24,943 bases of DNA from an uncultured Flavobacteriales bacterium (GTDB lineage Bacteria > Bacteroidota > Bacteroidia > Flavobacteriales_C > GCA-002722245), in NCBI GenBank assembly GCA_963933885.1, contig CAWVWF010000024.1:1-24943 (forward strand), in the 5' to 3' direction. Each line of letters opens with the position of its first letter. Within the stretch, counting starts at the first letter, position 1. The notes under the pieces are model-generated. The model was not told the origin of the DNA. It saw only the letters and a list, made by a program, of their open reading frames with translations, and searched no databases. The translations under genes and the position numbers were made by a program. Below, piece by piece: positions 480 through 23,639 of this stretch.

Positions 480-3400
480 TTAGTTAGCAACCTTTGCCAA
501 AAACTTTCTCTTCGACCTTTCGGTTCCAAGCATAAAAGTATATGGACCTTCTCCTTTTTCTCCTTTAACTTCTCTTTTATCAGCCTTAAGTGATGATATA
601 ATTGCATTAAAATCATCAGCAGAAGAAAGACATCTCATAACTCCTTTTGAATAGGAAAAATAGTACCACGTTTTATCATCTATTTCAATATAGATTGTAA
701 CTGCTTCTTTACCTTTCTTTCTTACAACTTGAATATTCCCCTTAACAAATCTATTAAGTTGTTTTTTACCTAACAAACCAATTCCTAGTGCTCCATCAGA
801 CAAGTATGATTTTGTTCTTTGTTGCCAGTATAGATTAACATCATTAAAGAGAATATTATGACGAATATTAGAAGGTACTTTCTTAAAAGCTCCAAATAAG
901 TTTAATTCAGAAACCAACTTATCTCCTTTCTTCTTTCCAACCATTTCTCTAATTGCTTTCTCATACATTAAGTTTCCAACTTTAGTTGGTCTTAGTTTAG
1001 GATTACCTTGGATGTTACCTAGAATATGTGCCCACATTGCATCATCCAGATGGAAATCGAACGCCATTGCTCCTTTTATCTTAACAGAATCAGTATAAGG
1101 ATCGTGTGTTATGCCTCCAAAGTTCTTCACTTTTATCTGACCCAACTTATCAGCTAAAACCACTTCTCCTTCCCCTCTAATCACACAAGTATTAGTATTT
1201 AATCCAATAAAATTACCAGGGAAACTAGATTCCATTAACTTCTCTTTATTAGATAACTGGTATTCTTTTAATTCAGAATCATACTGAACAAAACCTGCCG
1301 CAGTAATTAACATTTGATCACTATGATATTTCTTTTTAGATAAGAATGCAGAATACAAATGAGTAGAATCCTTTTTAATAACTACCCCTGTTCCAAGTTT
1401 AGTTCCTTTCGCTTTTCCTTTAACCCAAGACTGAATTCCTGAATCAATTGGAATCATAACATTAGAAGGGTCAATTTCACTTTCAAATCCAAACCAAGGT
1501 TTATTTAATTTATTACACGCATGCTGTAAAACAGCTGCTCCTCTAAATAACATTCCTTTCTTATTGGCCTCAATTTTTGTACTTCCTCTATATCCAAAAT
1601 CAGGACTTAACATGAATTTATCATCAACGTTGATATTACCGCTAGCTACAGTTTGGAATGCAGAATCAACTCTAATATTATCAAAATGGATCAATTGTTT
1701 ACCACCATCAGAACCAACGTATTCATAATCTCCCTCAGCAAAATAACTTCTTCTTGCTCTAATTTCTACCGTAGAATTATTAATTGTATGATACTGAGTA
1801 GTAACGTTAGCTATAATTTTCGCACTATCAAGTGGCACTAGTTCAGCAGCTTTTTTAACAACTACTTCTCCATCTGATGGATAAATTCTAGCATCTGCTA
1901 CATTGATATATTTAACATCATGCGCTTTAATTATATATTTCTTTAAATCGTAATTCGCTTTTGGAGAGATAAATTTAAGTGAATCTTGATCTTTGTGGGT
2001 AGATATAAATTCAGAACCTGCTAAATCTAAATCATTTCCTCCAGCAGTTGAAGCAGCTTTACTTGCATTACCGTCAGAAGAAGATAATTCAAGTTCGAAA
2101 TCATCCATGAACCATTTAAACTGATCCATAAAACAGATATAACTGTTCATAGGGAAATCAACGAAAGACGCTCCTCCATTTGCTACAAATTCTCCAACAC
2201 GTTTCTTAAAGTCAATCTTAGAATTTACATCATTTGTTGAAAAGGCTATTCCATCACCAACATCTGCAGCAGTGGTATCCGATTTTAATTTGAAATCGGA
2301 TGTATCAGCATTGAAAGTTATATTTTGGAATTCAAAAATTTCAGATTTCAACTCTGCATTATCAAAATCCATCATTCCAGCACCTGTCATTCCTTTGTGA
2401 TCATATACTAAACCTCCATGAAGTTTAGACCCTTCAGAATACATTGAAATAGGAGTTTTAACCTTTTTCATTGTGAAATAATCTTTAGTTGCATAATATG
2501 CTACTTTCACTTTTCGCCCTTGAACGTCACAGTATTCAACAGGTGCCATTTGTGGTCGAATTTCAGATTCGTATGCTGGAGCGTTCATGGAATCTAAATA
2601 AAATACAAAAGCTTTAGATTTTGAAGTTGAAGTAATGTAATGGAATTCTCCATCTCCCATTAAACCTTCGTTACTTAATATAATGTCATTGTTAAACTTC
2701 GCTTTCCCTCCATACATTTGATACCCCTCTGGTGGTGCAGCTTTTACAAAACCTAAGGAATGATCAGGCATCAAAATCAACTTTTCTTTGAAATCAGGGA
2801 AAATTCCTCCTGAAGCAAATGTCCCAGGAAAAGATATTCCTGGAATTGAAAAAGACATCATACTATCCACAGTAAATGTATCTAACTGAAAATAGACTTT
2901 ATGTGGATCATATGCATTACCTCTTTTATTCCTTTTGTTATATCTAACATATGATTTTTTTGTTGAATGGAATTTCGGGAATTCGGGAAATGAATCAGAT
3001 AATATTCCTGATTTGTTATGAGGCCAATCAATTTCTAATGCTCCACTCACATCTTCAATTGTACTTCTAACCATTTTATACTGAACTTTATCTCCTCTTG
3101 TCTCTCCTGCTAAATACGCAGCCTGTAGTCTTACTGAATCAACTTCATCTAATTTAACATCAAAATTATCATAAGAGAATTCAAACTTATTCCCATGAAA
3201 CTCATAACGTCCAGCTCTAATAATACCAGCAAAAGACATGTCTCTATTTCTATGTAATTTAAAAACTCCATTCGAAGGCATGAATCCTGTTTTCCTAGCT
3301 CTACTTAATGCAACTCCACCTACACCTCTCATAGTAATATCAAAGTTGATCAAATTCATTGTTGCGTTAGGTTCTCCTTTTATAATTGAAGTAACTTCAA

Positions 3401-5099: not shown

Positions 5100-5908
5100 A
5101 ACCAATTGTCTTTTGAGTATTTTTTATTGAATAAAAAACCTGCTTCAATAGCGGCTTTTGTAATTATTTCTTCATCTACTGATAAAAAACCACTAAGGGC
5201 TAAAATACCACCTTGCTTAATATTATCAGAATAAACATTTAATTGATCAAGAAGAATATTAAGGTTAATGTTAGCCAGAATTACATCAAACTCTTTATTG
5301 CTAATCATTTCTTTACCTCCCAACTTCACATCGAAACTTACATCATTTCGTTCACTGTTTTCTATACAATTTTCAACAGCCCATTCTTCAATATCGATCG
5401 CTTCAACAAATGAAGCTTTCATTTTTTTTGCTAGTATAGCTAGGATACCTGTACCAGAACCCATATCCAATACAGACTTCCCTTCTAGCTTCATCTCTCT
5501 CATCGCATTCACCATCATATAAGTAGTTTGATGATGACCAGTTCCGAAAGACATTTTTGGCTCAATAATAATTTGAAATTCCGTTTGAGGAACATTTTGG
5601 TGAAAAGGGGCGATAATACTACACCAGTTCTCCACCAAAATGGGCTCGAAAGAGCTTTCCCAAACTTTGTTCCAGTTTTTAGTCGGCACTAATTCTATAG
5701 AAAAATCCAGTTTATACGAATCGTTTAAACTTAAATTATCTAAATATTGTTTGATTTCATTTGAGTAGTCCGAAGCTGAAATAAAAGCGTTTAAACCCTC
5801 TTTTGTTTCTTCAAAACTTTCACATCCAAGCTCTCCCAATTGGGCAATAAAAACATCAACCCAGGGAGTCCTGGGTTGAATGTTAATTGATATTTTATGA
5901 TAATCCAT
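5075..5908 (-). CDS. prmA: Ribosomal protein L11 methyltransferase
   Basis: 277-aa ORF with the PrmA hallmark GTGHHQTT, an SAM-binding DMGSGTGILAI motif and overall PrmA length and layout. ATG start overlaps the tpiA stop (TAATG). Confidence 0.9.
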   Translation of the reverse strand: MDYHKISINIQPRTPWVDVFIAQLGELGCESFEETKEGLNAFISASDYSNEIKQYLDNLSLNDSYKLDFSIELVPTKNWNKVWESSFEPILVENWCSIIAPFHQNVPQTEFQIIIEPKMSFGTGHHQTTYMMVNAMREMKLEGKSVLDMGSGTGILAILAKKMKASFVEAIDIEEWAVENCIENSERNDVSFDVKLGGKEMISNKEFDVILANINLNILLDQLNVYSDNIKQGGILALSGFLSVDEEIITKAAIEAGFLFNKKYSKDNWLCLAFSKK

Positions 5909-6691: not shown

Positions 6692-8050
6692 TTATTTGTA
6701 ATCGTTTTTAATTTCCTCAAAGATCGGAAAATCATTGTAATGCCACTTCCCCATTACGGTATCTTTTTTCAACAAAATTAATCCTGGGGATGATCTGATC
6801 ATTGTTTTTAATTCAATATCATTCGAACTGTAAAACTTAACTCTCGTTTTCATTTCGTGCTTAAAAGCCTGTATTTTTTGATCATCTACTTCCGTTGTAA
6901 GAATATTATACTCAAAACCTTCTGCTGCAGACTCGACAAATAGTTTTTTTACTCGTTCATAACTTTTCTCTCCTTTCGCTGATTTCATAAATACTAATCC
7001 ATCATTTGTTTCTTCAAAATGTCCATAAAATTTTAGATCTCGAACAACTAACATAAATCTGTAAGTAGAATCAGCTAACATCTCTTGTAATTTATCTTCT
7101 CCATTATCTAAAGACTCAGCTGTTAAATCCATAATCTTTGGATCCTTGTCAGGAGAATATAATACTGTAGTATCAACATAAACTATCCAGTCGTTTTTAA
7201 ATTCTTCAGGAACTTCTTCTACCCTTGTTTTCTGACCAGTACTCTTAATCTCGATGTATTTAATATCCAATTCCTCATCTACTTCCCTAAAGAAAGTTGT
7301 TGAAGAATCTTCCTCGTCAACATATTGCTCCCAATTTTTGTAGTCATCTGGAAAATCAGCTATTTCAACAACAACCCCACTCTGCTTATTTTTAAGTTTA
7401 TATAATATCAAAGGATTTCCTTTTTTAACTTTCATATTCTCCAGTAAGGAATCCCCTACAGCATATGCTCTATGATCTGCCATAGGTAAATGACGGAAAC
7501 AATAGAATGTAAATAAGAAAAATATAATACTTGAAACCCAAATAGTCAGTTTTTCACCTACCGGAGTTAATATTGTTTCGATTGAACTTCTTAAAATAAC
7601 CAATGGTAAAATCCCAAAGATTAAAATAACATCTTTCATAAAACTTTCAAAAGGTGTTAAAACCCAGAAGTCACCAAAACAACCACAAGTTTTAACTAAA
7701 TCAAATTTCCAACTTACAAACGTTAGAAATGTAAAAAATACAATCAGAACAAGTAACCAAATGGACACTTTCTTCATTTGAATACCAAGAAGCGTTAAGA
7801 TTCCTAACACGATCTCTAACACTACAATAAACATTGACATAGGAAGCGCTATATATGTAAGCCATTCCATAGGGTGAGCTAAAAGCCCTAGACCATTCTC
7901 AGAAAATATCTTTGCAAATTCCTCGAAATACTCTTGTAATTTATAAGAAAATCCTAACGGATCATTTGCTTTAATTAAACCTGAAAATATAAATAAACCT
8001 CCAACACCTAATCGGCTAATCCAAATCAAAATTCGTAGTGCAATATTCAT
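6692..8050 (-). CDS. BT_3928-family / DoxX-like membrane protein with C-terminal soluble domain
   Basis: 452-aa ORF with 4-5 N-terminal hydrophobic helices (DoxX/TQO-small-subunit-like) followed by a ~250-aa hydrophilic domain. This family is commonly found next to tpiA and DUF1599 in Bacteroidota. Confidence 0.6.
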   Translation of the reverse strand: MNIALRILIWISRLGVGGLFIFSGLIKANDPLGFSYKLQEYFEEFAKIFSENGLGLLAHPMEWLTYIALPMSMFIVVLEIVLGILTLLGIQMKKVSIWLLVLIVFFTFLTFVSWKFDLVKTCGCFGDFWVLTPFESFMKDVILIFGILPLVILRSSIETILTPVGEKLTIWVSSIIFFLFTFYCFRHLPMADHRAYAVGDSLLENMKVKKGNPLILYKLKNKQSGVVVEIADFPDDYKNWEQYVDEEDSSTTFFREVDEELDIKYIEIKSTGQKTRVEEVPEEFKNDWIVYVDTTVLYSPDKDPKIMDLTAESLDNGEDKLQEMLADSTYRFMLVVRDLKFYGHFEETNDGLVFMKSAKGEKSYERVKKLFVESAAEGFEYNILTTEVDDQKIQAFKHEMKTRVKFYSSNDIELKTMIRSSPGLILLKKDTVMGKWHYNDFPIFEEIKNDYK

Positions 8051-8113
8051 TTTATGTTTTTTTAGATGAAATAAATTTCGACATTCATTTAATGGTAGTC
8101 AAAAATTTAACGC

Positions 8114-10481: not shown

Positions 10482-10757
10482 CACAAAAAGCGAAACTATG
10501 AGTAACTACCTTGCATATTACTCTACGACAGCAATTAGAAAAAAGCCCATCCTTATCGCTCAATAACTTAAAATTAGCGGTGAACGAATTAAGAAACGAG
10601 CCAGGATTATCATTTGGAATCCAGCTAATTTTTAGAACGATCTGTTTTAAGGTGCCATAATCATTTTTTATCTTAGAAATAAATTAGTTTACAGGTTTGA
10701 TAATACACGAAACAAAAACCTGAGTTATTGTGTACTATACGTGCACTACTATTTGTA

Positions 10758-13619
10758 ATGAAAGAAAAAGACAATTTACTTCATCTTCGAAAAGAGATTG
10801 AAAGCCTAAAAAAAGAAAACCTCCATTTAAAAGGAAAGATAAAAGATGTTTTCAGCACTGTTTCTCATGGGAAACCGACAGTATACTCTACGTTTAACTC
10901 AGACGAAACATTAGAAAACCTTTTAAATTTATTCTCTGAATTAGAATCAAAAAAAGCCCTTTTAGATCAAAACCTCCAAGCATTAGATTCCGTTAATGAT
11001 GGAATAGCAATATTTGATAAAGATGGATTTTTAGTGTTTTCTAATAAATCGTTTCCAAAAGTTTTTCGGTTATCTTCTCAAAATTTAATTGGTAAACATT
11101 GGAGAGAAATTTTTAAAGGCGAAATAGAGTCCTCAATTAGATCATTACTTAGAGAAGTAAATCATAATTATGCTGTTCACAAGGAAGTAGTTATTCCATA
11201 TAAAAACGAAAGCATCTTTGTATCATCCTCTATCCATCCATTAGAAAATGGTGATTTTTTAATCAATGTTAAAGATGTTACTAGAGAAAAAGAAAAGCTA
11301 CATAAAATTCAAGAACAAGCTTTACTTTTAAAATCATCAGGAGAATTCATAGGAATTTGTAATTCTAAATTTGAATTTACTTTTCTAAATGATTCAGCGA
11401 TAAATTTATTTTCCATTCACAATGACTGGAAAGGCATGAAGTTCAGCGACTTTCTTCTTAATGGAAAAGTATTGGAAAAAGAAATAATCCCGAAGCTAAA
11501 GGAACGAAAAGGGTGGATTGGTGAATTAAATGTAAAAACGAAAAATAGAACATTCCCAATTGGTTGTGAAATAATGCCATTTCAAGCAACTCAGCTATCC
11601 AAAGGAGGTTACTATATAATACTGCGAGATATCACAGAAAGAAAACAAGCAATAAAAAAGCTTGTTGATGCAAAAGATGCTGCTGAAAACAACATGAAAA
11701 TCCGCCAGCAGTTCTTAGCGAATATGAGCCACGAAGTTCGTACTCCAATGAATGCAATAATTGGATTATCAAGCCTATTGTTAGATGGTACTTTAAAAGG
11801 GAAACAAAAACAATTTGCAGACTCTATAAAACTCTCAGCTGAAAACTTATTGGTTATTTTAAACGACATTTTAGATATTTCGAAAATGGAAAGTGGTAAA
11901 TTATCAATTGAGAAAGTATCTTTTGACTTTTACCAGTTAATAGAAGGTGTTAGATCTATTTTTGTTCATAAAATAGAAGATAAAGGAATAAAGTTCATAA
12001 TCAACATTGAAGAAGAGATTCCTGATTTTTTAATTGGTGATCCAACAAGACTTAATCAGATTTTATTGAATCTGATTAGTAATGCTGTGAAGTTCACTGA
12101 CAAAGGACATATTTCTTTAAATATAAAAGCTGTTACAAACAGTCAATCTGAAACAACACTTCAATTTGAAGTTGAAGACACAGGGTTAGGTATAGCAAAA
12201 GAAAACTTAGAAAAAATATTCAATGTTTTCACTCAAGAATCCTCTAATACAGCTAGGTTATTTGGAGGTACTGGACTTGGATTAGCAATAGTTAAACAGC
12301 TAATAGGAATACAAAATGGAAAAATAAATGTTCGATCAATTATAAATAAAGGAAGTGTTTTTACGGCTGAAATAAAATACGGAATACCTAAAGTTCAACT
12401 TGAACAACCTAAAGAATTTAATGAAGATTTTCAACTATCTAAATTAAAAGAGGCAAGAATCATAATGGCTGAGGATTACCCTATGAATCAACTTCTGGCT
12501 AAAAGCTTGTTTGATAAATGGGGACTTCATTTAACTATCGTAGAAAACGGAAAGGAACTGCTTAACGACTTAAATACGAACACATATGATATAATATTAA
12601 TGGACATCCAAATGCCAGAAATGGATGGTTTAGAGGCAACTCGAAAACTTAGACAAAGAGGTATTAGAACTCCAGTTATTGCAATTACAGCTCATGCTTT
12701 TGCTGAAGAACAAGAACAATGCATTAAATCAGGAATGAATGATTTTATTTCAAAACCATTTAAGGAAAAAGATTTAAAAGAAAAACTGATTACATTTTTA
12801 CATTTAAAACCTGATGATATTCAAACCATTAGGAAACATACCCCTACTCCAATATCCAATGACATAAGCTACTTCAAACTTAACTATATTAAAGAGATGG
12901 GAGCAGGTGATAAAAGATTCACTATTGACATGCTTGAAATGTTTCTCCAACAAGTACCTAAATCATTAAACGATATTATTAAAGCTTTAAATCAAGGAAA
13001 TAAAAAAGAAATATCAAAATACGCACATACCTTACAATCCTCTTTCGAAATTATTGAACGATCAGATGTAAAGTCGGATTTAAAAAGACTTGAACTGTGG
13101 GGGAAAGAAATAGAACCATTAGACAATCCTATAGGTGAACTTGAGTCTATTATAGAGAAATCTAAATTGATTATCCAAGCTGTTTCTGATTATCTTGGTA
13201 AGGTTGTAAATACTAGCTTCACTCCTATTGAAATGGTTTATAATACGAACACCTTAAGTGAGGTAATTATAAACTTCAGAAAAATAAATGAGCTAGCAGT
13301 AGGTGATAATAATTTCATTAGAGAAATGCTAAACTTATACGTTTCACAAACCTCTGGTCAATTAGAAGTGATAAGTCAACTTTGTAAAAAAGGAGACCAC
13401 TTTGAAGCAAGTACTATATTTCACAACATGATCGCATCGTTTGATTTAATTGGATGCGAAAACTTAATGAACTCTTCTAGAAGGTTGGAAAACCTTACTA
13501 TCAATAATGAGAAGTCAAAAAACTTAGACACTATGATAGATCAGTTTATCACGCTTACCAAATCTACTTTCGAGATTGTAAAAACAAAAGCAAATGAAGA
13601 ATTCAAGATTAAGCTTTAA
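10758..13619 (+). CDS. Cytoplasmic hybrid sensor histidine kinase/response regulator with two PAS domains and two C-terminal Hpt-like domains
   Basis: The ORF-track start 10728 is TTG. The first ATG at 10758 gives MKEKDNLLHL with a coiled-coil leader and no TM segment. PAS-like blocks are DSVNDGIAIFDKDGFLVFSNKSF and LLKSSGEFIGICNSKFEFTFLN. HisKA H-box MSHEVRTPMNAIIG. HATPase N/G boxes LNLISNAVKFT, DTGLGI and GGTGLGLAIVK. Receiver domain with DIILMDIQMPEMDG and KP. Hpt 1 has KYAHTLQSS. Hpt 2 has FHNMIASFDLIGCENL. Confidence 0.85.
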   Translation: MKEKDNLLHLRKEIESLKKENLHLKGKIKDVFSTVSHGKPTVYSTFNSDETLENLLNLFSELESKKALLDQNLQALDSVNDGIAIFDKDGFLVFSNKSFPKVFRLSSQNLIGKHWREIFKGEIESSIRSLLREVNHNYAVHKEVVIPYKNESIFVSSSIHPLENGDFLINVKDVTREKEKLHKIQEQALLLKSSGEFIGICNSKFEFTFLNDSAINLFSIHNDWKGMKFSDFLLNGKVLEKEIIPKLKERKGWIGELNVKTKNRTFPIGCEIMPFQATQLSKGGYYIILRDITERKQAIKKLVDAKDAAENNMKIRQQFLANMSHEVRTPMNAIIGLSSLLLDGTLKGKQKQFADSIKLSAENLLVILNDILDISKMESGKLSIEKVSFDFYQLIEGVRSIFVHKIEDKGIKFIINIEEEIPDFLIGDPTRLNQILLNLISNAVKFTDKGHISLNIKAVTNSQSETTLQFEVEDTGLGIAKENLEKIFNVFTQESSNTARLFGGTGLGLAIVKQLIGIQNGKINVRSIINKGSVFTAEIKYGIPKVQLEQPKEFNEDFQLSKLKEARIIMAEDYPMNQLLAKSLFDKWGLHLTIVENGKELLNDLNTNTYDIILMDIQMPEMDGLEATRKLRQRGIRTPVIAITAHAFAEEQEQCIKSGMNDFISKPFKEKDLKEKLITFLHLKPDDIQTIRKHTPTPISNDISYFKLNYIKEMGAGDKRFTIDMLEMFLQQVPKSLNDIIKALNQGNKKEISKYAHTLQSSFEIIERSDVKSDLKRLELWGKEIEPLDNPIGELESIIEKSKLIIQAVSDYLGKVVNTSFTPIEMVYNTNTLSEVIINFRKINELAVGDNNFIREMLNLYVSQTSGQLEVISQLCKKGDHFEASTIFHNMIASFDLIGCENLMNSSRRLENLTINNEKSKNLDTMIDQFITLTKSTFEIVKTKANEEFKIKL

Positions 13620-13783
13620 TCTTCACTTCCTAATTTCTTATACAACCAATATGCCGCTGCAACTAAGGCAAGTAACAATGCTATATTTAAAATCCATCCA
13701 AATATCTTAAATATATACATTGACAAGAAGTAAAGTACTACACCTAATAATATCCAATAACCTAATTTCTTTAACTCTTTCAT
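13616..13783 (-). CDS. Unannotated 55-aa two-TM small membrane protein, translationally coupled to the giant AAA+ gene
   Basis: Minus-strand ORF MKELKKLGYWILLGVVLYFLSMYIFKIFGWILNIALLLALVAAAYWLYKKLGSED. Its ATG overlaps the giant gene stop (TAATG at 13781..13785). It has two hydrophobic helices with Lys flanks. It falls below the ORF-track length cut-off. Its stop overlaps the kinase stop convergently. Confidence 0.4.
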   Translation of the reverse strand: MKELKKLGYWILLGVVLYFLSMYIFKIFGWILNIALLLALVAAAYWLYKKLGSED

Positions 13784-16700
13784 TAGTCAACTCCGTTTAA
13801 ACCGTTTTCAATAACTTCTTTTAATGACTTTAATCCTAGATTAAACTCATCCATTTCCAATAATATTTTCCCCATATTATCTCCTCCTACACCGTTGTAT
13901 TTGTTGTTTTTCTTAAATTGATCAACAATAGAATTCCAACGATCTAATTCCTCTTCACTTTGATAACCAGTTAAAGATTTAAACTTTAACAAGTTTGATT
14001 CTGCGTTAGATGTTAAAGTCTGTGATTCACTTTCATAATGTGCCATAAGAATCTCCTCAAGTTCCTCATCATTCATTATAGGGACAATCTTCGCAGAAAT
14101 CTTATTCATATCCCTATAAGAACCCTGTAATTTAAAAACTGGCTCTAAACGATATTCATCAGCTTGCGCTGCAGATTCAATATATTGTTGATTCACTTTC
14201 AAGATAACATCTCTTGCTACAAAAAGCTTCTTCAAAACACTTGTAATCTCTGTAATATCATCAGATGTAATATTACTTTCTAAATGTAAATTCTCACTAT
14301 TTCCTGTTTCTGCGAACTCAATTAAACTATATAAATCTTGCTGACTTTTTGAAGACAGCTTACTCAACACAGAATTACTCGTTAAACAGTTTTCAACATA
14401 AGACAACTTAAATGCTCTCTCTGACCCTCCTAGTATATCCCCAAGGTTATAAGTATCAGCCCTATTCGTTAACATATCTGGAATTTGAAACTTATCTCCA
14501 CTTTCAGTATATGGGTTCCCCGCCATTACAACACAGACTTTCTTACCTCTTAGATCATAAGTTTTAGATTTACCTTTATAAACTCCTTCTATTTTTCTTT
14601 GTCCATCACAAAGAGAAATAAATTTTTGCAAAAACTCTGGATTACAATGCTGAATATCATCAAGATATATCATTACATTATCTCCCATTTCAAAAGCCAA
14701 GTTCAACTTTTTCAATTCATCTCTTGTTGCTGAATTATCTGCTAAAGCTGGATCAATTGAAGTAATCGAATGCCCTAAAGCAGGACCATTGATTTTCATG
14801 AAAATCAAACCAAGTCTTGAAGCTACATATTCCATTAATGTAGTTTTTCCATAACCTGGAGGTGAAATCAATAACAACATCCCCATTAAATCGGTACGTT
14901 TATTCTCTCCTGCCTCTCCTATTTGTTTCGCAAGATTATCTCCAATAATAGGAAGATACACTTCATTAATTAATCGGTTTCTAACAAATGAACTTAAAAC
15001 TCTTGGTTTAAATTCGTCCAGTTTAAGTGTTTCCTTAAAATCTGAAACTAATGTTTTCTTTAAATCTAAAAAAGCCTTGTAGTTTGGTACTTCAATATTC
15101 TCAAAAACTGTTAATTGCGTAACAAAATCTATAAACTTAAATGATAGTTCACCATTTATAACTTTTGAATGTTCTCCAACCAAACCAGAAACAATCGTTC
15201 CTGTTTCAACATTTGAAACCTGAGAAACTTCGTAGCTATTATCCATTACCAACAAAGTCGTTTCTAAACAAACCCCTGCATCTTCAAAAGAAATTGAATC
15301 AGCATAAGAATCTACCCATTTCTTAACGAATACAAACTTATCTACATTCGTTTCTGCGAGTTTCTTTAAAGAATTTAAATACGTTTCTTTATGTTTTCCG
15401 TTTACTAAGAACTTATTGAATTCATCTTTGAATTCCCAAGCCTTATGATCAATTACAAATTTTGAATTAGATTTCAATTCTTCAAAAAGGTAATTAGCAG
15501 AATCAATAGATTCATCTTGAAGTAATTCTTTCCCTGCTGCAAAAACATCAATTTGAAGACTAATATTTGTAATCAAATCATCCATTTCATTACTTGTTGG
15601 AAAAACAGACAATAACAATGAAAGAGATTTAATCTTATCTGAAATCACTTTTCTCTGCTCTTCGTTTAATCCGTATTTCCAGAACAACTGTGCTTTAACT
15701 CTGCTCTCATTCGAGAAACGAAGCAAACCAATAGACTGATTTAACTCAATCAACTTCCTTAATATTTTTGCAGCATCAAAATCATGAACACCTTTCAAAT
15801 AACCTTCTTCATATCTAGACGCCATTCTTTTTTGAACAAAATCAAGTAATTCTTCTTCTGAAAAATGAAGCGTATCCTCATGATCTCCTGCCTCAATTTC
15901 TTTAAATAAACTGAAGGCTAAAAATTCTGAACGGTAAACAGTCTTATTTTCTGAAGGTAAATGAAGTGACCAATAATCTTTGAACTGATAAAATGCTTCA
16001 TCTTCTAACTTATCATAAAAGTTAGTTCCTGTTAAGTGAAAATACATTTCATCCCCTTTGGGTACTATTGTTAAGTCCAACGGTTGAGTATTAACTGAAA
16101 ACTTACGCTTCCCGAAAGAGATAATATTTTCTCCATCAACAAAAAGCTCTTTTCTATCCTTTAATTGTCTGATTGAGTCTTCTTGAGTAGATTTTAATTT
16201 ACTCTGAATTTCATCTGCTTTCACAGAGTCTTTCATTTCAATCAATTGCTTTACAATATCACGAACTTTATCAACCATGATATCACTCGCTAAGTAAGAA
16301 TTGATTTCAGACACTGAATCCATCTGAGACAATTTATTCTTTACTCCTTTTAAAATCCTATTCGCAGAATTTAATAATGCACTCGATTTCTTGTTGAATT
16401 GCTCTAAAACCTGAGCCTTCTTAGTTTCGAAGATATTATAAACTTCTTCTCGCTTTTGGATAACAGTTTCTATAAACTCAGGAAAATCAGAAAATCTTCC
16501 TTCTAATTCTTCAAGCTTAACCATTACCTTATTCAAATACTCATCACACTTTTCTTGTGTATCACTTATATCTATATAATTCCCGAGACTCTGCTCTACT
16601 AATTTTATTTGTGCGGCAAACTCAGACTTTCCTTCTTTAAGCATAAGAGATTTTTTAATACCTCTTAACTTTGATCTAAGTTGATTGAACTTACTATATA

Positions 16701-18666
16701 TTTTAGATATATTATCTACAATTTTTGTTGTTTGAGTTGTATCCTTAATCTTTAAATTAGATACTACATCAATCAACATTTCAAGCTCACCTGCCGTCTT
16801 ATTAATATCTTCATTTACATTGTCGCATGTTTGTACTTTAAGCACCTTAGCAATCTCCCCCTCAATCGTTAATACCTTATCAGAATATGGATTAAGAGAT
16901 TCTTTTTTCAATAAGAACTGAATACAACGTTCACTTTGAGTTTCGTTTAGCTTTGAAAGAATCTCTTCATAACCTTCAATTTTTTCTAGATCTGCATATC
17001 TAAGGTCTCTTAAACTTATTGCTTCACCACGAAGATTTCTAATAACAGATAAGACTTCAACAAAGTCATGAATTTTATCGTAATTACTAGACTTTAATTT
17101 CTTAATAAGATTATCTAGCTTTAAAAACACTTCACCAGAAACCTCGTTTGTATTCTTCCTCGCTCTAACTACTTTATCAAATTCGTCTATTGCAAGTTCT
17201 GCTGTAGACTTAATTTCTTCAATAGATTCTGATATGTTAAAAGCTTCAGATTTGTTTAACCAATAATAGGAATCCAATACATCCGTAGAGAGCTTCTTAA
17301 TATCATAATACAAGTCTTGATAGTTCTCATCTTTCTTTAAAAGACCAACTAACTCATTCCCTTCAGACATTGCTTTAACAACATCTTTATTTCCAATTTT
17401 ATACAAATAATTACTTGTATCTCCTGAGTCAGCAATACCTGCTTCAGTATATGGAGTTTGCCAAATTTGAATTACATGATGTTTCTGAGGATCTTCATCT
17501 GCTGAAAAATAACACAATGAACCATCATCGAAAAATGAGTAACCACTACAAATAATTGGCTTAGCTGCTTTTTGACTTATAATATTATATGAAAACAAAC
17601 TATATGTCCCTGTACTTTCTTGATAGAACACAAATAAGTTATCTTCTCCATTTGGAGACACAATTTTTTTATCAAAGCCAACCCCTTCAATATCTAACTC
17701 AAAAGTTTTAGAAGCTCCATTTTGTAAATAGAATCCATTAGGGAAAATTACACCTTGATCATCTGGCAATAACAAACATGCTGTTTCAATAGCATCAACA
17801 CGAACAACTGTGCTCAGTTTTTCATTAAAAATAAAATACCTAGCGTTTTCTTGATAGGGTTTTATTTTTAATAAAATGATACTTCCTAAATCAACATAAT
17901 GATAATCTGCATCATCTAAAGTTTGATCCTTATTATCAACAGCTTCAGAATAAATTCCTTTACCATCATTTGTATTATCTTCAATTTTTATGGTTAAATC
18001 GCCTTTTATAGTTTCTACAAATACACGATCTAAAATAGACACATGTGGTTCTTCACCTGCTCTATGTGCATCTCTTGTTACTTTCTCCCATTCAAACTCA
18101 TGTTGAGATGGATTTACAACTTCATGATCAAATCTACTTCCTATATAAGTAAGTGAATCATCTTCATTTACTTGCCATTTAAATGCTTTAAAATCAGAAG
18201 CAGACTTTCCAATCTGGAAAATCATAAATAAGAAAGGGCCTATCTCTACAAACTTTGTAAATACAGTTGTTTTATAGTACTTATAAACGTCCTGAAATTC
18301 CTTTTCAAATTCAGTATTATTAATTAACTCTAAAGTCTCTTCTTTGAAATTCTCATTATAAGTGTAAATGCTAAAAACATCTTTAGGTAGTACTTCAGAC
18401 CTTAAACCAACAAAAACATTATATCCGAAAATAAACTTGTTTCCAACAGGAATCATATCCCTAGGAACACAGTTGTTTTGAGTATTAATTCTTTCGGTAG
18501 CAATTAACTTAGTTTCAATTGAACCAAAGACTTCTTTCCTAGAAACATTTAATTTCTCAAGTTTTTCAGAAAGAGAAACAGCACCATCAGAAAGTCTTTT
18601 TCTCAAAACTTCGTAAGTACCACTCGCTATATTTACTTCTGGATTTTCTGTAGAATTATCAGCCAT
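13783..18666 (-). CDS. Giant (~1627 aa) multidomain protein with C-proximal MoxR/AAA_5-type AAA+ ATPase module
   Basis: 4.9-kb ORF. The track start 18714 is TTG. The first ATG at 18666 gives MADNSTENPEV. Layout: beta-rich N-terminal ~450 aa, then a ~600-aa K/E-rich helical/coiled-coil region, then an AAA+ core. Walker A LLLISPPGYGKTTL; Walker B VMIYLDDIQHCNPEFLQKFISLCD; sensor-1 VCVVMAGNP; Arg finger IPDMLTNRA. Spacing and pattern match MoxR/dynein-type AAA_5, not ABC/SMC (no LSGGQ). A ~230-aa C-terminal extension follows. Confidence 0.8.
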   Translation of the reverse strand: MADNSTENPEVNIASGTYEVLRKRLSDGAVSLSEKLEKLNVSRKEVFGSIETKLIATERINTQNNCVPRDMIPVGNKFIFGYNVFVGLRSEVLPKDVFSIYTYNENFKEETLELINNTEFEKEFQDVYKYYKTTVFTKFVEIGPFLFMIFQIGKSASDFKAFKWQVNEDDSLTYIGSRFDHEVVNPSQHEFEWEKVTRDAHRAGEEPHVSILDRVFVETIKGDLTIKIEDNTNDGKGIYSEAVDNKDQTLDDADYHYVDLGSIILLKIKPYQENARYFIFNEKLSTVVRVDAIETACLLLPDDQGVIFPNGFYLQNGASKTFELDIEGVGFDKKIVSPNGEDNLFVFYQESTGTYSLFSYNIISQKAAKPIICSGYSFFDDGSLCYFSADEDPQKHHVIQIWQTPYTEAGIADSGDTSNYLYKIGNKDVVKAMSEGNELVGLLKKDENYQDLYYDIKKLSTDVLDSYYWLNKSEAFNISESIEEIKSTAELAIDEFDKVVRARKNTNEVSGEVFLKLDNLIKKLKSSNYDKIHDFVEVLSVIRNLRGEAISLRDLRYADLEKIEGYEEILSKLNETQSERCIQFLLKKESLNPYSDKVLTIEGEIAKVLKVQTCDNVNEDINKTAGELEMLIDVVSNLKIKDTTQTTKIVDNISKIYSKFNQLRSKLRGIKKSLMLKEGKSEFAAQIKLVEQSLGNYIDISDTQEKCDEYLNKVMVKLEELEGRFSDFPEFIETVIQKREEVYNIFETKKAQVLEQFNKKSSALLNSANRILKGVKNKLSQMDSVSEINSYLASDIMVDKVRDIVKQLIEMKDSVKADEIQSKLKSTQEDSIRQLKDRKELFVDGENIISFGKRKFSVNTQPLDLTIVPKGDEMYFHLTGTNFYDKLEDEAFYQFKDYWSLHLPSENKTVYRSEFLAFSLFKEIEAGDHEDTLHFSEEELLDFVQKRMASRYEEGYLKGVHDFDAAKILRKLIELNQSIGLLRFSNESRVKAQLFWKYGLNEEQRKVISDKIKSLSLLLSVFPTSNEMDDLITNISLQIDVFAAGKELLQDESIDSANYLFEELKSNSKFVIDHKAWEFKDEFNKFLVNGKHKETYLNSLKKLAETNVDKFVFVKKWVDSYADSISFEDAGVCLETTLLVMDNSYEVSQVSNVETGTIVSGLVGEHSKVINGELSFKFIDFVTQLTVFENIEVPNYKAFLDLKKTLVSDFKETLKLDEFKPRVLSSFVRNRLINEVYLPIIGDNLAKQIGEAGENKRTDLMGMLLLISPPGYGKTTLMEYVASRLGLIFMKINGPALGHSITSIDPALADNSATRDELKKLNLAFEMGDNVMIYLDDIQHCNPEFLQKFISLCDGQRKIEGVYKGKSKTYDLRGKKVCVVMAGNPYTESGDKFQIPDMLTNRADTYNLGDILGGSERAFKLSYVENCLTSNSVLSKLSSKSQQDLYSLIEFAETGNSENLHLESNITSDDITEITSVLKKLFVARDVILKVNQQYIESAAQADEYRLEPVFKLQGSYRDMNKISAKIVPIMNDEELEEILMAHYESESQTLTSNAESNLLKFKSLTGYQSEEELDRWNSIVDQFKKNNKYNGVGGDNMGKILLEMDEFNLGLKSLKEVIENGLNGVD

Positions 18667-18720
18667 GCTTATCAAAATATACTGTATCTCTCTTTCATAT
18701 CGAATGAAAAACAAACACTA

Positions 18721-18776
18721 CACTTATTAATAAAAGAAATTGAAATAATAGGGTTCGATTAATCTCGAACCCTATT
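18721..18776 (-). terminator. Intrinsic terminator/attenuator candidate between flotillin gene and giant AAA+ gene
   Basis: Perfect 12-bp stem aatagggttcga / tcgaaccctatt (18747..18758 and 18765..18776) with a 6-nt loop. It lies 13 nt downstream of the flotillin stop. On the minus-strand transcript it is followed by AUUUCAAUUUCUUUUAUU. Confidence 0.4.
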
Positions 18777-18789
18777 TAATTATTTAGAA

Positions 18790-20937
18790 TTAGTTCCTTG
18801 ATATTGACTCTAAACCTAGGATAGAAGCACTTTTCTCAGCGATTCCCATTCCTGTAGCAATGTTTAAGAAGTTCCCTAAAACACCTTTTTCTTGATCGTT
18901 AGCTCCACTCATCATTTTAGCGATTAAAGCAGTAATACTTAAGTTTTTCAACTCTTCACTTGTAACTCCAAACTGATCAATAAACTTTCTCAAGTTCTCT
19001 TTAAATGATGAACCTCCTTCTGAATCAAAGAATGTATTTTTGATGTCTTGAACAGTTTCTGAATTGTTAACCATTCTATCAATAGACTTTCCTTGTGTAA
19101 CTGCTCCAACCAACTTATCAAAGAAGATTGTTTCACCTCCAATAATTTCAATATTAGAGTTTCTAAGCGCTTCAGATAATACATGAGCTTGTGAATCAGC
19201 AATACTTTTCTGAGCATCTAAATGAGCCAAATCAACTTTCAATTCCTTCTCTAATTTCAATCGGAACTCTTCATGATCTTTCCCAAGACCTTCAAGCTTC
19301 TTCATTGCAATTGCTTTCTGATCGATACCTTCAGCTTCAGCAATCATTTTAGCTTTCAATACTTCAGCTTCAACATTACCTTCTTTTAATTTAGCTTCAG
19401 CCATTTTCTCAATAACTTGAGCCTCTGCCAAACCTTGCTCAACTTCCAACTTAGCGACAACTAATCCACGTTTTTCATTTGCTTCTGCTTCTGCTTCTCC
19501 AGTTAACTCAATTGCTCTAGCATTTGCTTCAGCTTCTTTTTCAGTAGCTTGTGCTTTAGCCTCCATTACCTGAGCTTCAGCCATACCTAAAGATGCACTT
19601 TCTGCAGCTTTCGCTTCAGCTAATGTTTTAATTGCTTCAGCTTGCTTAACACTTGCAACTTGTGTGCTTTCAGCATTAATAACAAGCTCTTGAGCTTTAA
19701 ATTCGGATGCTTTCTTATTAGCCTCTGCTTCTTTAATTTGCTTTACCAAACTCTCTTCAGCATCTTTCTCTGCTAGCGTGATTGCAACTTCTTTAGTTCT
19801 CTCCGCTTCTGCAAATGCCTTAGTATCTTTTATTTTCTCTTCTTCTTCAACAACCAGTTTCTCAACAATTACTCTATCTCTGATTACATCCTGAATGTTC
19901 TTACGCTCTGTTTCTATAACTTTTTCTTTCTCAATTTGAGCAAGTGTTACGATACGTTCACGTTCTGTAACCTCCAACATTCTGTCTTTTTCGATACGCT
20001 CGTTTTCAACAGCTTCAGTTCTTTCTTTATTTTTCGCTGCAACAATTACTTGTCTGTCTTTGTTTTCTTCAGCTACTTTAATATCTTCCTCTGCTTCGAT
20101 CCTTGCGTTCTCAGATTTTCTTCTTTCAATCTCACCTACTTTTTTAATTTCAGCTTGTTCTCTAGATTTAATATTAGCAATCTCACGCTTCTGCTTTTCT
20201 TCAGCTTCAGCCAATTGCTTATTTAATTCTAATATTGCTTCTTTAGCTTCAACATTTTGTTTTGTAATAACCTTTTCCTTTTCTTTTTCAATCAGGTTAG
20301 ATTTAATTTTTTGTTGAGCAGTTAACTCTGTAATTTTCTTAATACCTTGAGCATCAAGAATATTCTTTTCGTTTAAGTATTCAACTGGAGTTTGCTCTAA
20401 ATAGTCAATATGACAGTTATCCAATGCATATCCATTTAAATCACTTCCGATAATTCTAATAATCTCATCTCTGAAATTTTCTCTTTCATTATACAACTGT
20501 ACAAAGTCAAATTGCTTTCCAACTGTTTTTAATGCTTCAGAAAATTTTGCTTCAAACAATAAATGTAATTGCTCTGGATGAGATGCTCTAGCACAACCTA
20601 TAGACTGGGCTACCTGCATTACTTCTGTTTTACTAACTCTTACATAAAAAGCAACTTTAATATCTGATCGGATGTTATCATTACAAATTAATCCATCACT
20701 TCCCGATCTTTCAATTTCTACTTTCTTAAGAGAGACATCCATTGATTCAATCTTGTGTAAAACAGGAATCATAATCCCCCAACTATGGAAAACCTTAATC
20801 CCACCTATACCAGTTCTTACTAAAACTTCTCCAGGCGATGTTTTTCTTACTGCTCTTGCGAAAAACACAACAATACCAATTAATATTCCTAAAATAATCA
20901 AGCCTGCGAGGCCTACTGTATTTAATATAAAATCCAT
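18790..20937 (-). CDS. Flotillin-family SPFH/Band-7 protein (YqiK/FloT-like) with long EA-rich coiled coil
   Basis: 715 aa. N-terminal TM LAGLIILGILIGIVVFFA. The SPFH core includes SPGEVLVRTGIGGIKV and DIKVAFYVRV. An extended E/A/K-rich flotillin-type coiled-coil follows (AEAEANEKRGLVVAKLEVEQGLAEAQV), then a C-terminal ~150-aa tail. Confidence 0.85.
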   Translation of the reverse strand: MDFILNTVGLAGLIILGILIGIVVFFARAVRKTSPGEVLVRTGIGGIKVFHSWGIMIPVLHKIESMDVSLKKVEIERSGSDGLICNDNIRSDIKVAFYVRVSKTEVMQVAQSIGCARASHPEQLHLLFEAKFSEALKTVGKQFDFVQLYNERENFRDEIIRIIGSDLNGYALDNCHIDYLEQTPVEYLNEKNILDAQGIKKITELTAQQKIKSNLIEKEKEKVITKQNVEAKEAILELNKQLAEAEEKQKREIANIKSREQAEIKKVGEIERRKSENARIEAEEDIKVAEENKDRQVIVAAKNKERTEAVENERIEKDRMLEVTERERIVTLAQIEKEKVIETERKNIQDVIRDRVIVEKLVVEEEEKIKDTKAFAEAERTKEVAITLAEKDAEESLVKQIKEAEANKKASEFKAQELVINAESTQVASVKQAEAIKTLAEAKAAESASLGMAEAQVMEAKAQATEKEAEANARAIELTGEAEAEANEKRGLVVAKLEVEQGLAEAQVIEKMAEAKLKEGNVEAEVLKAKMIAEAEGIDQKAIAMKKLEGLGKDHEEFRLKLEKELKVDLAHLDAQKSIADSQAHVLSEALRNSNIEIIGGETIFFDKLVGAVTQGKSIDRMVNNSETVQDIKNTFFDSEGGSSFKENLRKFIDQFGVTSEELKNLSITALIAKMMSGANDQEKGVLGNFLNIATGMGIAEKSASILGLESISRN

Positions 20938-20950
20938 TTAATTATTGTTT

Positions 20951-21610
20951 TTAATCTATATATGGTTCAACAATGTAATAATTTTTAGCTTCAATTAACT
21001 CGAGAACTAAAGCCTTATCTCCTTTTTTCAAAGAAGTTCCTGATACACACTTAAACATGATCAATTCAGGTACTCGATCAACTTCAATTTCCCCTTGTCC
21101 TAATTTCATTTCATCAGCACCTAATGTTACCGTAACAATTTTCCCTACAGCATTCCTCAATTCTTTTTCTTCAATTTTCATTTTCTTAAAAACTTTCACA
21201 AAAGGCTGCGTAAAGATTTTACCGATAATTGAACTGATAATAATATTAGGAATAAATAAACCTAAACCTAAAAGGAAATTGTCGCCTAACAATTTATTTC
21301 CAATAATAGAAATAAACCATCCAGACAAAGCGAAGAAACTAAGAAAGAACATTAATGGAACGTACTTGATGTTTAAAAACTCAAGGATGTTATTTAAAAA
21401 CATCATATCTCCTAATCCTCCGTCTGCTTCCACACTAGTATCAACGTCTACATCAGCACTTAAATCAACATCAGCGTCAATATCTATGTCCATAAAATCC
21501 ATATCTAATACTCCAACGATAACAGTTACCCAATAAAGTAAAATCAGTACTAGTAATATCGTGAAGGGATAATTCATCCCTTCAAAGGACAATTCGATTA
21601 TTTCTTTCAT
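20951..21610 (-). CDS. NfeD/YqiJ-like membrane protein with C-terminal OB-fold and poly-acidic loop
   Basis: 219 aa. It has an N-terminal TM, the acidic tract DMDFMDIDIDADVDLSADVDVDTSVEAD, 2-3 further TM helices, and a C-terminal beta-barrel segment (GKIVTVTLGADEMKLGQGEIEVD...YYIVEPY) typical of NfeD partners of SPFH proteins. The stop is 13 nt upstream of the flotillin start. Confidence 0.7.
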   Translation of the reverse strand: MKEIIELSFEGMNYPFTILLVLILLYWVTVIVGVLDMDFMDIDIDADVDLSADVDVDTSVEADGGLGDMMFLNNILEFLNIKYVPLMFFLSFFALSGWFISIIGNKLLGDNFLLGLGLFIPNIIISSIIGKIFTQPFVKVFKKMKIEEKELRNAVGKIVTVTLGADEMKLGQGEIEVDRVPELIMFKCVSGTSLKKGDKALVLELIEAKNYYIVEPYID

Positions 21611-21660: not shown

Positions 21661-22365
21661 TTATTTATCCATGTTCATCTTAGCTTTCAAAGCAGCTAAT
21701 GCATCATCAGCAGAACTAGCGTCAGTATTTGCAGCATCGTTGATTTCATCTTCTATAGAAGTGTTTTCACCAGCAATCTCACCATATGCTTCGCCTAATG
21801 CTTCATCTTGCTCAACTTTTTCCTTCATTCTTTCTAACATAGAAATTGTACTATCAGGATCGATTCCAGCTAACTGCTTGTTCATCTTCTTAGTAGTTTC
21901 ACTAACACGAACTCTAGCTTTTAAAGTCTTTAATTCGTTTTCGTAATTACTAATCATGCTTTTCAATTTCTGAACTTGAGCACTCAATTTCACTTCTTGA
22001 GCTCCGTAGTTATCAGATCTTACTTGAGTTTCTGATGAATTCTTAACAGCTTGATCCTTTTTAACCAAAGCTTCTTTTGCTAAACGATCAGCATCTTCTG
22101 CGTTTAATTCTCCTTTAGAAACTTTCTGTAAAATCAACATTGCTTTCTTTTCCCAAGATTCAGCAGCTAATTTAGCTTCCTTTGCTTCTCTTTTAGATCT
22201 GATAACAATTGCTTTAATTTCAGCTAATCCTTTTAAAGAACCATCCAAATCTTTTTTCAAATCTCTAATTCCTTGCTCTGTGTTTGCAATTGGATCTTCT
22301 AATTTATCAATAACAGAATGTGCTTCTGCTTTACCAATATTAAATAATCTTCTAAATATGTTCAT
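21661..22365 (-). CDS. pspA: PspA/IM30 (phage-shock protein A / Vipp1 family; ESCRT-III superfamily)
   Basis: 234 aa. The N-terminal signature MNIFRRLFNIGKAEAHSVIDKLEDPIANTEQGIRDL matches the PspA/IM30 helix alpha0-alpha1. It is heptad-rich throughout with an acidic C-terminus. Confidence 0.85.
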   Translation of the reverse strand: MNIFRRLFNIGKAEAHSVIDKLEDPIANTEQGIRDLKKDLDGSLKGLAEIKAIVIRSKREAKEAKLAAESWEKKAMLILQKVSKGELNAEDADRLAKEALVKKDQAVKNSSETQVRSDNYGAQEVKLSAQVQKLKSMISNYENELKTLKARVRVSETTKKMNKQLAGIDPDSTISMLERMKEKVEQDEALGEAYGEIAGENTSIEDEINDAANTDASSADDALAALKAKMNMDK

Positions 22366-22369
22366 TTTA

Positions 22370-22765
22370 TTATTTTTTTGAAATGTTAATTAACTCCGAC
22401 GAATATTCACTCATTAATAGACTTAATGAATTTATCGATGATTCTAATTCGTTTAAATCTAAATTCTCTAATTGTAATGTATCTCTAAAAATCAATTTCT
22501 TTCCTGAATCATCAAGAACAAATGCTCCATGAATTATATCTCTATTCTTTTTAAGTAAATCGATATATACTTCACTTGAAGTAGAGTCTATATCAGTAAT
22601 ATATTGCTCCATGATTAAAATAGGATCTTCACATCCTAAAACAAGGTTTTTAATTCCTGATTCTTCTGCTTCTATAACCAAAATTGAATCAGCTTCACTT
22701 TCGTTTACAATAGTGTATTCTAACTCCGTTACGTAATTTTTAATTTTTGAAAAATTGTTATTCAT
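22370..22765 (-). CDS. Acidic small cytoplasmic protein, possibly YbjN/DUF2170 (YjfI-like) PspA-associated protein
   Basis: 131 aa, very D/E-rich, no TM, 4 nt upstream of pspA. Its size, charge and position before a PspA paralog mirror E. coli yjfI-yjfJ. Family assignment is from pattern only. Confidence 0.35.
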   Translation of the reverse strand: MNNNFSKIKNYVTELEYTIVNESEADSILVIEAEESGIKNLVLGCEDPILIMEQYITDIDSTSSEVYIDLLKKNRDIIHGAFVLDDSGKKLIFRDTLQLENLDLNELESSINSLSLLMSEYSSELINISKK

Positions 22766-22949
22766 CCCTTTCCTTTTAGTTGCTTTTAATTAAAAAACTA
22801 ATCTAAACCAAAATTCCTTTAATTGTTAAATAATTGAATTGAAATATTTAAAATCGTGCACTTTTTTAAAATATTATTCACTCAAAACTTTCATTTATTA
22901 GCATTTTTGTTTAAAATTGAACATAACCAAGATATAAAATCTTTTGTGA
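22766..22949. promoter_or_regulatory. Divergent promoter/operator region between the psp-flotillin cluster and the XRE/S24 regulator gene
   Basis: 184-bp AT-rich intergenic region flanked by divergent ATG starts. It contains short palindromes (CAATTG, AAATATTT, GTGCAC) and attcac...gtgaat inverted half-sites. No precise -33/-7 call made. Confidence 0.3.
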
Positions 22950-23639
22950 ATGAACAAATTTTTAGCAAAAAATAGCGAAGAAAAATCTACAATTAGTAAA
23001 AACATTAGAAAAATAAGGACTATAAAAGGTATTAGTCAAACAGTTTTCGCTGAAGACTTTGGTCTTAATCGTGCTAACATTAGTAGTTATGAAGAAGGAA
23101 GAGCTGAGCCTAAGATGGATTTTGTGATAAAGATTGCTAAAAAGTTCGGTTTAGACATGGAACACCTTTACACAAAAGACCTTACTGTAAACGACCTAAC
23201 CCACTTCTCCCCTCCTCAATACAAGAAAGAAACAATTTCACTCCAAAAAGAAAATAGTATTAAATGGGTAAGTAGATCAAGTAGTTTAGACTATGCATCA
23301 ATACTAATAAATGGTAGTGATAATTTACCCGATCTTCAAGTTCCAAATATTAAAGAAGCAAGAGCTTTCGAATATTTTGGTGACGACATAAAAGCTTTTA
23401 GCAATGGAGATGTTTTATATGCTAAAAAAATTGACAATAAAAACTGGAATGGTATAATTCCAGGTGAAGCATGTGTAGTTATTAGCAACGACAGAGTATA
23501 TTTTAAAAGATTAGATGTTGTTAAGAATAAAATTTCCCTTGTATCTGAAAACCCAAAATACAAGTCATTAAATATAGCAATTGAAGAGATTCAAGAAATA
23601 TGGAGGGTTGTTGGTTACTTATCTTTTTTAATTCCTTAA
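22950..23639 (+). CDS. XRE-family HTH transcriptional regulator with LexA/S24-like C-terminal domain (nucleophile Ser not conserved)
   Basis: 229 aa. N-terminal Cro/C1-type HTH IRKIRTIKGISQTVFAEDFGLNRANISSYEEGRAEP. The C-terminal region aligns to the LexA/cI S24 fold: GEACVVISNDRVYFKRL with the general-base Lys in FKRL conserved, then SLVSENPKY and WRVVGYL. Where LexA has G-x-S-M this protein has YFGDDIKAFSNGD, so a canonical Ser-Lys dyad is doubtful. Confidence 0.7.
   Translation: MNKFLAKNSEEKSTISKNIRKIRTIKGISQTVFAEDFGLNRANISSYEEGRAEPKMDFVIKIAKKFGLDMEHLYTKDLTVNDLTHFSPPQYKKETISLQKENSIKWVSRSSSLDYASILINGSDNLPDLQVPNIKEARAFEYFGDDIKAFSNGDVLYAKKIDNKNWNGIIPGEACVVISNDRVYFKRLDVVKNKISLVSENPKYKSLNIAIEEIQEIWRVVGYLSFLIP

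Follow-up and report, generated by a model that had tools for sequence, protein, structure and literature searches.

A giant DUF3686-type AAA+ ATPase encoded with a flotillin and an NfeD-like protein is a candidate ATP source for bacterial membrane scaffolds

On the minus strand of a 24,943-nucleotide stretch from an uncultured Flavobacteriales bacterium (GenBank assembly GCA_963933885.1, contig CAWVWF010000024.1; referred to here as the window) is the gene of a giant ATPase of 1,627 amino acids containing DUF3686, DUF7902 and AAA+ regions (13783..18666, including the stop codon). The open reading frame spans 13783..18714, and translation from its in-frame ATG at 18666 begins MADNSTEN. An ENA metagenome contig independent of the window has a call for an identical 1,627-residue protein, bearing out the protein and start proposed in an initial annotation made from the DNA letters. 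The N-terminal part matches Pfam DUF3686 (PF12458) over positions 2–448 of the 448-position profile (596 bits, E 4.8e-179), so the ATPase is not a chance observation. All coordinates given for the ATPase and its upstream partner genes are on the minus strand of the window.

The entire chain is spanned by two AlphaFold2 models, each built from 72-sequence alignments: residues 1–480, with a predicted local distance difference test score (pLDDT) of 84.7 and a predicted template-modelling score (pTM) of 0.82, and residues 481–1627, with a pLDDT of 82.2 and a pTM of 0.58. The first segment (17227..18666) corresponds to Pfam DUF3686 and comprises an N-terminal helix (residues 16–47), a β-propeller-like domain (strands within residues 53–403) and helices 420–471, which pack against the N-terminal helix. 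The roughly 30 strands of the head fall into six or seven groups of three or four, giving body to the β-strand-rich N-terminal domain of the initial annotation; in the model the head is propeller-like, with no close solved relative.

Following the head is a K/E-rich helical-bundle region (residues 481–841, 16144..17226; K+E 24%), which includes DUF7902 (residues 590–671) and is modelled as 11 helices of 10–58 residues linked by short loops, not as one continuous coiled coil. Residues 842–1230 (14977..16143) are modelled as a small β domain (approximately 848–886), a second helical domain (approximately 912–1141, about 230 residues), a β pair and a long connecting helix; profile searches of solved structures gave no sequence match to these residues. 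Of the coiled coil of about 600 residues proposed initially, the K/E-rich helical character holds, but the length and continuity do not, the model having about 360 residues in 11 helices and then separate domains. The AAA+ α/β core (β1 at residue 1264 to β5 at 1407) and its helical lid occupy residues 1231–1530 (14077..14976), and at the end of the chain is a helical tail (residues 1531–1627, 13783..14076), the part that varies in length among family members. The layout is thus a propeller-like head, a length-conserved and mostly helical middle of about 740 residues, a single AAA+ module and a helical tail.

Head and AAA+ core are separated by a median of 746 residues (interquartile range 741–753, 187 proteins), and by 732–752 residues in divergent representatives. 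Total length ranges from 1,496 to 2,036 residues, with much of the range coming from the C-terminal tail. The constant spacer is compatible with a role as a ruler, and to this extent the ruler or lever suggested earlier survives the loss of its 600-residue coiled coil. Between phyla, sequence identity peaks in the AAA+ part (57–73%), followed by the head (47–56%) and the middle (32–48%).

The Walker A motif SPPGYGKTT (residues 1268–1276, lysine K1274), with G-Y-G-K-T-T at residues 1271–1276 (14839..14856), lies 60 residues from the Walker B motif MIYLDDIQHC (residues 1332–1341, 14644..14673) within one C-proximal domain. In Walker B the usual D-E is replaced by D-D (D1336 and D1337), and the Q-H that follows is invariant. 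Between α3 and β4 is a predicted pre-sensor-1 (PS1) β-hairpin (residues 1358–1371, 14554..14595), assigned as two strands by DSSP on the model (segment residues 878–883 and 886–891). The stretch from sensor-1 A-G-N-P (residues 1382–1385) to N-R, the putative arginine finger (residues 1401–1402), spans 14461..14523. Walker A, Walker B, AGNP and N-R are invariant among 71 close homologs, 20 cross-phylum orthologs and 70 full-length representatives of 50%-identity clusters, the last being just 26–45% identical to the query outside the AAA+ core. These motifs all lie where the initial annotation had placed them, and the Walker residues, whose invariance it had proposed to check, show no degeneration in the three sets. 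Judged by these motifs, the AAA+ module is predicted to be catalytically intact.

Upstream of the ATPase gene are four genes on the same strand. Nearest is a 715-residue protein (18790..20937) with a transmembrane (TM) helix, an SPFH domain, a long E/A/K-rich helix and a conserved C-terminal region. Its homolog profile aligns with Escherichia coli YqiK over the TM helix, SPFH domain and coiled coil (hhalign probability 100%, E 3.9e-40, 32% identity over 395 columns), which identifies it as a YqiK-type flotillin. Pfam gave no match to this protein and Band_7 in just one of 22 homologs, and its profile found only a weak QmcA match in the PDB. Next are a 219-residue membrane protein of the YqiJ/YuaF (NfeD-like) type (20951..21610; Pfam YqiJ_N 25.4 bits against a cutoff of 23, BLASTP to E. 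coli YqiJ E 1e-3), a 234-residue PspA/IM30 family protein (21661..22365; Pfam E 5e-39) and a 131-residue CesT/Tir-like chaperone-fold protein (22370..22765; Pfam CesT_Tir_1 E 6.5e-54).

Neighbourhoods were compared at 80 loci from Bacteroidota, Planctomycetota, Verrucomicrobiota, Desulfobacterota, Clostridia, Acidobacteriota and Kiritimatiellota. Flotillin is present at 74 of them, YqiJ at 58–64, PspA at 26 and the CesT-like gene at 23; every CesT-like locus and nearly every PspA locus is named as Bacteroidota. Judging by the locus tables, most of the loci lacking flotillin seem to be merely short of upstream sequence. Inserts between the flotillin and ATPase genes are sporadic and mutually unrelated, and apart from a divergent HTH-S24-like gene the 80 loci contain no further recurrent neighbour and no conserved downstream gene, VWA or phospholipase D partner; nor does any neighbour of the ATPase in the window have a VWA Pfam match. 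The YqiJ–flotillin–ATPase triad is kept in family members of just 26–28% identity, and is present in Proteus mirabilis. YqiJ, the YqiK-type flotillin and the ATPase, in last position, form a conserved three-gene module, which is preceded on the same strand by the CesT-like/PspA pair in Bacteroidota and in at least one Pseudomonas megaplasmid. Linkage of the ATPase is near-universal to flotillin and YqiJ and facultative to PspA and CesT, which shifts the emphasis away from PspA, where the initial annotation had put it.

The Pseudomonas case is megaplasmid pQBR103 of P. fluorescens SBW25, in which the triad directly follows a YjfI(CesT-like)–PspA–polyamine cluster on the same strand. The full one-strand array (L085, 1–13184) reads YjfI(CesT-like)–PspA–rhomboid–DUF2491–DUF350–DUF1190–glutathionylspermidine synthase and then YqiJ-like, SPFH and giant ATPase, merging two PspA operon classes that are given separately in PMC11237479.

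The C-terminal region of the flotillin (residues ~550–715; window 18790–19230 covers residues ~570–715) aligns in a distant ATPase-linked homolog of 28% identity, and ATPase-linked flotillins share the consensus elements 'IDIVGGE..FFD', 'GK.VDR.V.NS' and 'FGL.SED.KNLSI'. This region is undetectable in E. coli YqiK, and the fetched E. coli region has no ATPase gene beside yqiJK. Such a distribution, with conservation confined to ATPase-linked flotillins, is suggestive of a docking site for the ATPase head.

The initial annotation regarded a megaprotein of this kind as atypical, but among the DUF3686 proteins, a large and already catalogued family of fixed architecture, it is quite ordinary. More than 4,081 homolog clusters share the architecture; at E ≤ 1e-30 there are 404 representative clusters, which stay collinear at identities as low as 26%. 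In Pfam the head is catalogued as DUF3686 ('ATPase involved in DNA repair') and a portion of the middle as DUF7902 (PF25472), and family proteins are named 'DNA repair ATPase' or 'MoxR-like ATPase' in databases. Operons of CesT/Tir, PspA, YqiJ and flotillin with a 'beta-propeller + coiled-coil + AAA+ ATPase' were described by Ravi et al. (mSystems 2024, PMC11237479), who noted the wider distribution of abbreviated flotillin–YqiJ(–ATPase) operons and proposed ESCRT-like roles. Domain order and gene order are equal to those found here, with no essential difference, and Dokdonia donghaensis (ANH61663.1) in their supplementary table has the identical gene order, including a divergent cHTH+protease gene. 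Family and operon are thus already known, from comparative genomics alone; the present analysis adds flotillin/YqiJ as the universal partner, the placement among AAA+ clades, the invariance of D-D, the conserved spacer length and a recurrent inter-gene hairpin.

By fold, the ATPase core is closest to CbbQ2 and NorQ. Structure comparison gave 16.4 for NorQ, 14.8 for the dynein motor domain and 14.1 for midasin, followed by ClpA, ClpB, NVL, Lon, McrB, Vps4, FtsH and RuvB at 13.2 down to 10.7; Foldseek independently ranks dynein heavy chains, NorQ and CbbQ2 at the top. Pfam assigns generic AAA (PF00004, 39.8 bits) and AAA_5 (26 bits, cutoff 22) to the core and gave no AAA_3/MoxR match to the ATPase. 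PDB searches with the single protein, a whole-family profile, an AAA-core profile and a profile of the half from Walker B to β5 matched solved AAA+ proteins (p97, Rix7, RuvB) only in the P-loop/β2 stretch, and the Walker-B-to-β5 half had no match among solved structures. The family has no solved member, and its clade is not assignable from sequence.

We treat the ATPase as a separate AAA+ lineage whose modelled fold lies nearest to the MoxR/dynein/midasin group. The MoxR/dynein-type core of the initial annotation thus holds at the level of fold (CbbQ2, NorQ, dynein) but not as a bona fide MoxR. The PS1 hairpin of the model likewise agrees with the MoxR family. Inclusion in that family itself is nevertheless not established, as the helix-2 β-hairpin (β2–α2) is absent from the model, where DSSP assigns a loop of 18 residues containing short helical turns; none of the 80 loci has a VWA/MIDAS partner; Walker B reads D-D-I-Q-H in place of D-E-x-N-R; and the chain of 1,627 residues is five times the length of MoxR-class proteins such as CbbQ, NorQ and RavA (about 300 residues). 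The core also differs from that class in its second half, which has no detectable sequence similarity, while its P-loop half resembles classical AAA proteins or RuvB. Between β5 and an invariant G-S-Y-R, where a pre-sensor-2 insert that repositions the lid would be expected in MoxR proteins, are about 110 residues including a 33-residue helix, as seen in the alignment and the model. Midasin (Rea1/Mdn1) and dynein heavy chains concatenate six AAA modules and carry a MIDAS or microtubule-binding domain, whereas the DUF3686-type ATPase is bacterial, has one module and an N-terminal propeller-like head, and is linked to a membrane scaffold. The classical AAA clade (Vps4, p97, FtsH) does not fit either: the PS1 hairpin is present in the model, Walker B is D-D and the closest fold lies elsewhere.

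We lean, with slightly more confidence than doubt, towards the DUF3686 ATPase being an ATP-driven remodeller of the flotillin/NfeD scaffold and, where it is present, of PspA as well. The AAA+ modules would oligomerize, probably as a hexamer like other AAA+ proteins, and the helical arms would hold the propeller heads at a set distance. The heads would dock on the cytoplasmic flotillin/NfeD assembly, with the C-terminal region of flotillin as the candidate site, and ATP binding and hydrolysis would promote assembly or disassembly of the flotillin scaffold, or client exchange, during envelope stress. Hydrolysis is probably slow owing to the D-D Walker B, and at loci that have it, the ESCRT-III-like polymer of PspA would be acted on too. 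Vps4 with ESCRT-III and FtsH with HflK/C likewise pair an AAA+ enzyme with an ESCRT-III-family polymer (as PspA) or an SPFH-family cage (as flotillin), a likeness of function only. A bolder version, which we hold as a tentative conjecture, makes the family the dedicated energy source of flotillin (SPFH) scaffolds, and of PspA in CesT–PspA lineages: a hexameric motor of the MoxR/dynein class with six propeller-tipped arms of defined length would grip the flotillin dome through the family-specific C-terminal region of flotillin and drive cage opening, disassembly or client release.

Several points weigh against this picture of a remodeller. We infer the contact of the ATPase with flotillin or PspA from gene linkage alone, and its presumed oligomeric state is borrowed from other AAA+ proteins. 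The invariant D-D could mean very slow hydrolysis, and with it a switch rather than a motor. Ordinary folded domains would likewise show conservation of spacer length. The ATPase-specific flotillin C-terminus has a single negative control, E. coli YqiK. Known MoxR- and midasin-type ATPases act through VWA/MIDAS partners, and as no such partner is found at the loci, their coupling mechanism is not simply transferable. Literature searches on DUF3686-type ATPases yielded no experimental study.

The only serious rival puts PspA at the centre: the ATPase would be the missing bacterial analogue of Vps4, with the PspA polymer as primary substrate and flotillin merely recruiting it. PspA and the CesT-like gene do share its operon, in the window, at 23–26 mostly Bacteroidota loci and on pQBR103. 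ESCRT-like roles are proposed for such operons (PMC11237479), and in a 2025 review a Vps4-like ATPase for bacterial PspA appears absent (PMC7619361). PspA is absent from most loci and the fold is not that of Vps4, and we regard this rival as rather unlikely.

Less probable again is a MoxR-type maturation chaperone, which would insert a cofactor into a client enzyme or activate it, as in CbbQ/CbbO, NorQ/NorD and RavA/ViaA, with the linkage to flotillin incidental. The best structural matches and the AAA_5 score above cutoff fit such an enzyme, as does the second half of the core, where 'GNP...G...PDML-NR' resembles the established MoxR pattern. It sits poorly with the missing AAA_3/MoxR match and helix-2 hairpin, and with the 80 loci, which offer neither a VWA/MIDAS partner nor a recurrent client gene; the linkage to flotillin/YqiJ, moreover, extends over at least seven phyla and down to 26% identity.

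Hardly more probable, and if anything a shade less so, is a non-enzymatic scaffold or nucleotide-gated switch, in which the chain forms a long strut beneath the membrane, with its D-D Walker B serving as an ATP-binding latch rather than as part of a motor. The invariant D-D in place of D-E would suit a latch, and the roughly 1,200 non-catalytic residues with their length-conserved spacer would suit a strut; but the Walker A K/T, the sensor-1 N and the N-R are all invariant over deep divergence, and the AAA+ core is the most conserved part of the chain (57–73%, against 32–48% in the middle), a pattern typical of an active enzyme.

A module for defence against phages or mobile elements is very improbable. 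PspA is historically tied to 'phage shock' and one copy lies on a megaplasmid, but a PADLOC scan of the ATPase gave just IetA (E 0.0084, over 29 P-loop residues), which is no meaningful match, and no relative was found in 2.9 million viral contigs. The window locus lies among housekeeping genes (tpiA, prmA, folP, cdaA and an rluX-like gene), and ten of the 13 matches in a plasmid collection are predicted to be non-mobilizable, several of the records being multi-megabase replicons.

Least probable of all is a DNA repair ATPase of SMC/Rad50/SbcC type, refuted as far as sequence and fold allow: only the database names and the Pfam description of DUF3686 speak for it, whereas the P-loop and Walker B sit together in a single C-proximal AAA+ domain unsplit by a coiled coil, Pfam and NCBIfam scans of the ATPase gave no SMC/ABC match (NCBIfam no meaningful match of any kind), and the neighbours encode membrane proteins, not nucleases. 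The initial annotation had rightly called the label unsupported, pointing to the absence of an ABC signature and of a Q- or H-loop, and its own assignment stands, as the fold matches are all AAA+ and include no SMC/Rad50-type ABC head.

How flotillin cages and the ESCRT-III-like polymers of PspA are built and dismantled without a Vps4-type ATPase is a question stated as open in PMC7619361. No other ATPase is genetically locked to the flotillin/NfeD pair across many phyla, which makes the DUF3686 family the obvious candidate. If remodelling of these scaffolds is indeed its role, the 'missing Vps4' of bacterial membrane-repair polymers would be supplied by a non-homologous route, and by a protein that the annotations of thousands of genomes wrongly call a DNA repair enzyme. 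The family can thus credibly be proposed as the ATP source of flotillin/PspA membrane scaffolds in bacteria, in a form sharpened here by flotillin as universal partner, by a motor nearest to MoxR/dynein/midasin, and by K1274, D1336/D1337 and the flotillin C-terminal region as named targets for mutation.

Between the flotillin stop codon (18790) and the ATPase ATG (18666) is a 123-nucleotide spacer containing a hairpin with a 12-bp stem followed by a T-rich tract (18747..18776, minus strand), resembling a terminator or attenuator. In related loci from several phyla a strong spacer hairpin recurs by position, though not by sequence: compared with dinucleotide shuffles, 26 of 41 spacers have a best 45-nucleotide fold with z ≤ −2 (median −2.9; −7.0 in the window). 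As a partial terminator or through mRNA stability, the hairpin may set a low ratio of ATPase to flotillin. A scan for sigma-70 promoters gave 48 sites against 44.9 expected, with a consensus that does not cover Bacteroidota promoters.

Transcribed divergently from the operon is a gene for a 229-residue putative regulator with HTH_3 and S24-like parts (22950..23639, plus strand; Pfam), conserved in position and orientation at 23–24 of the 80 loci and lying upstream of the module in Bacteroidota. LexA/CI-type peptidases carry the catalytic-serine motif 'GDSM'; the S24-like part here reads 'GDDI', and the protein probably regulates the operon without being a cleaving peptidase. The gene is drawn as '<-cHTH+Protease' in the supplement of PMC11237479. 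When the AT-rich 184-nucleotide divergent promoter region (22766–22949) was searched for inverted repeats that might mark an operator, nothing emerged beyond AT-rich palindromes without clear significance.

Elsewhere in the family, a distant member of 28% identity (L082) has a TelA-family gene (PF05816) directly downstream of the ATPase gene and an FtsH gene about 6 kb upstream (coordinates 13001–14221 and 137–2098). In the window, a gene caller places a 55-residue open reading frame right after the ATPase stop (13616–13783, minus strand; 7884–8051 in locus L084), in the short gap towards a hybrid histidine kinase gene (10728–13619, plus strand) that converges on the ATPase gene. A second giant open reading frame, of 1,541 residues (480–5105, minus strand), has no Pfam, NCBIfam or PADLOC match at E ≤ 0.01; it begins with a signal-peptide-like N-terminus (MPSIFKKVTLGLLFTILFPFLADAG) and shares some 30 nucleotides with the start of prmA.

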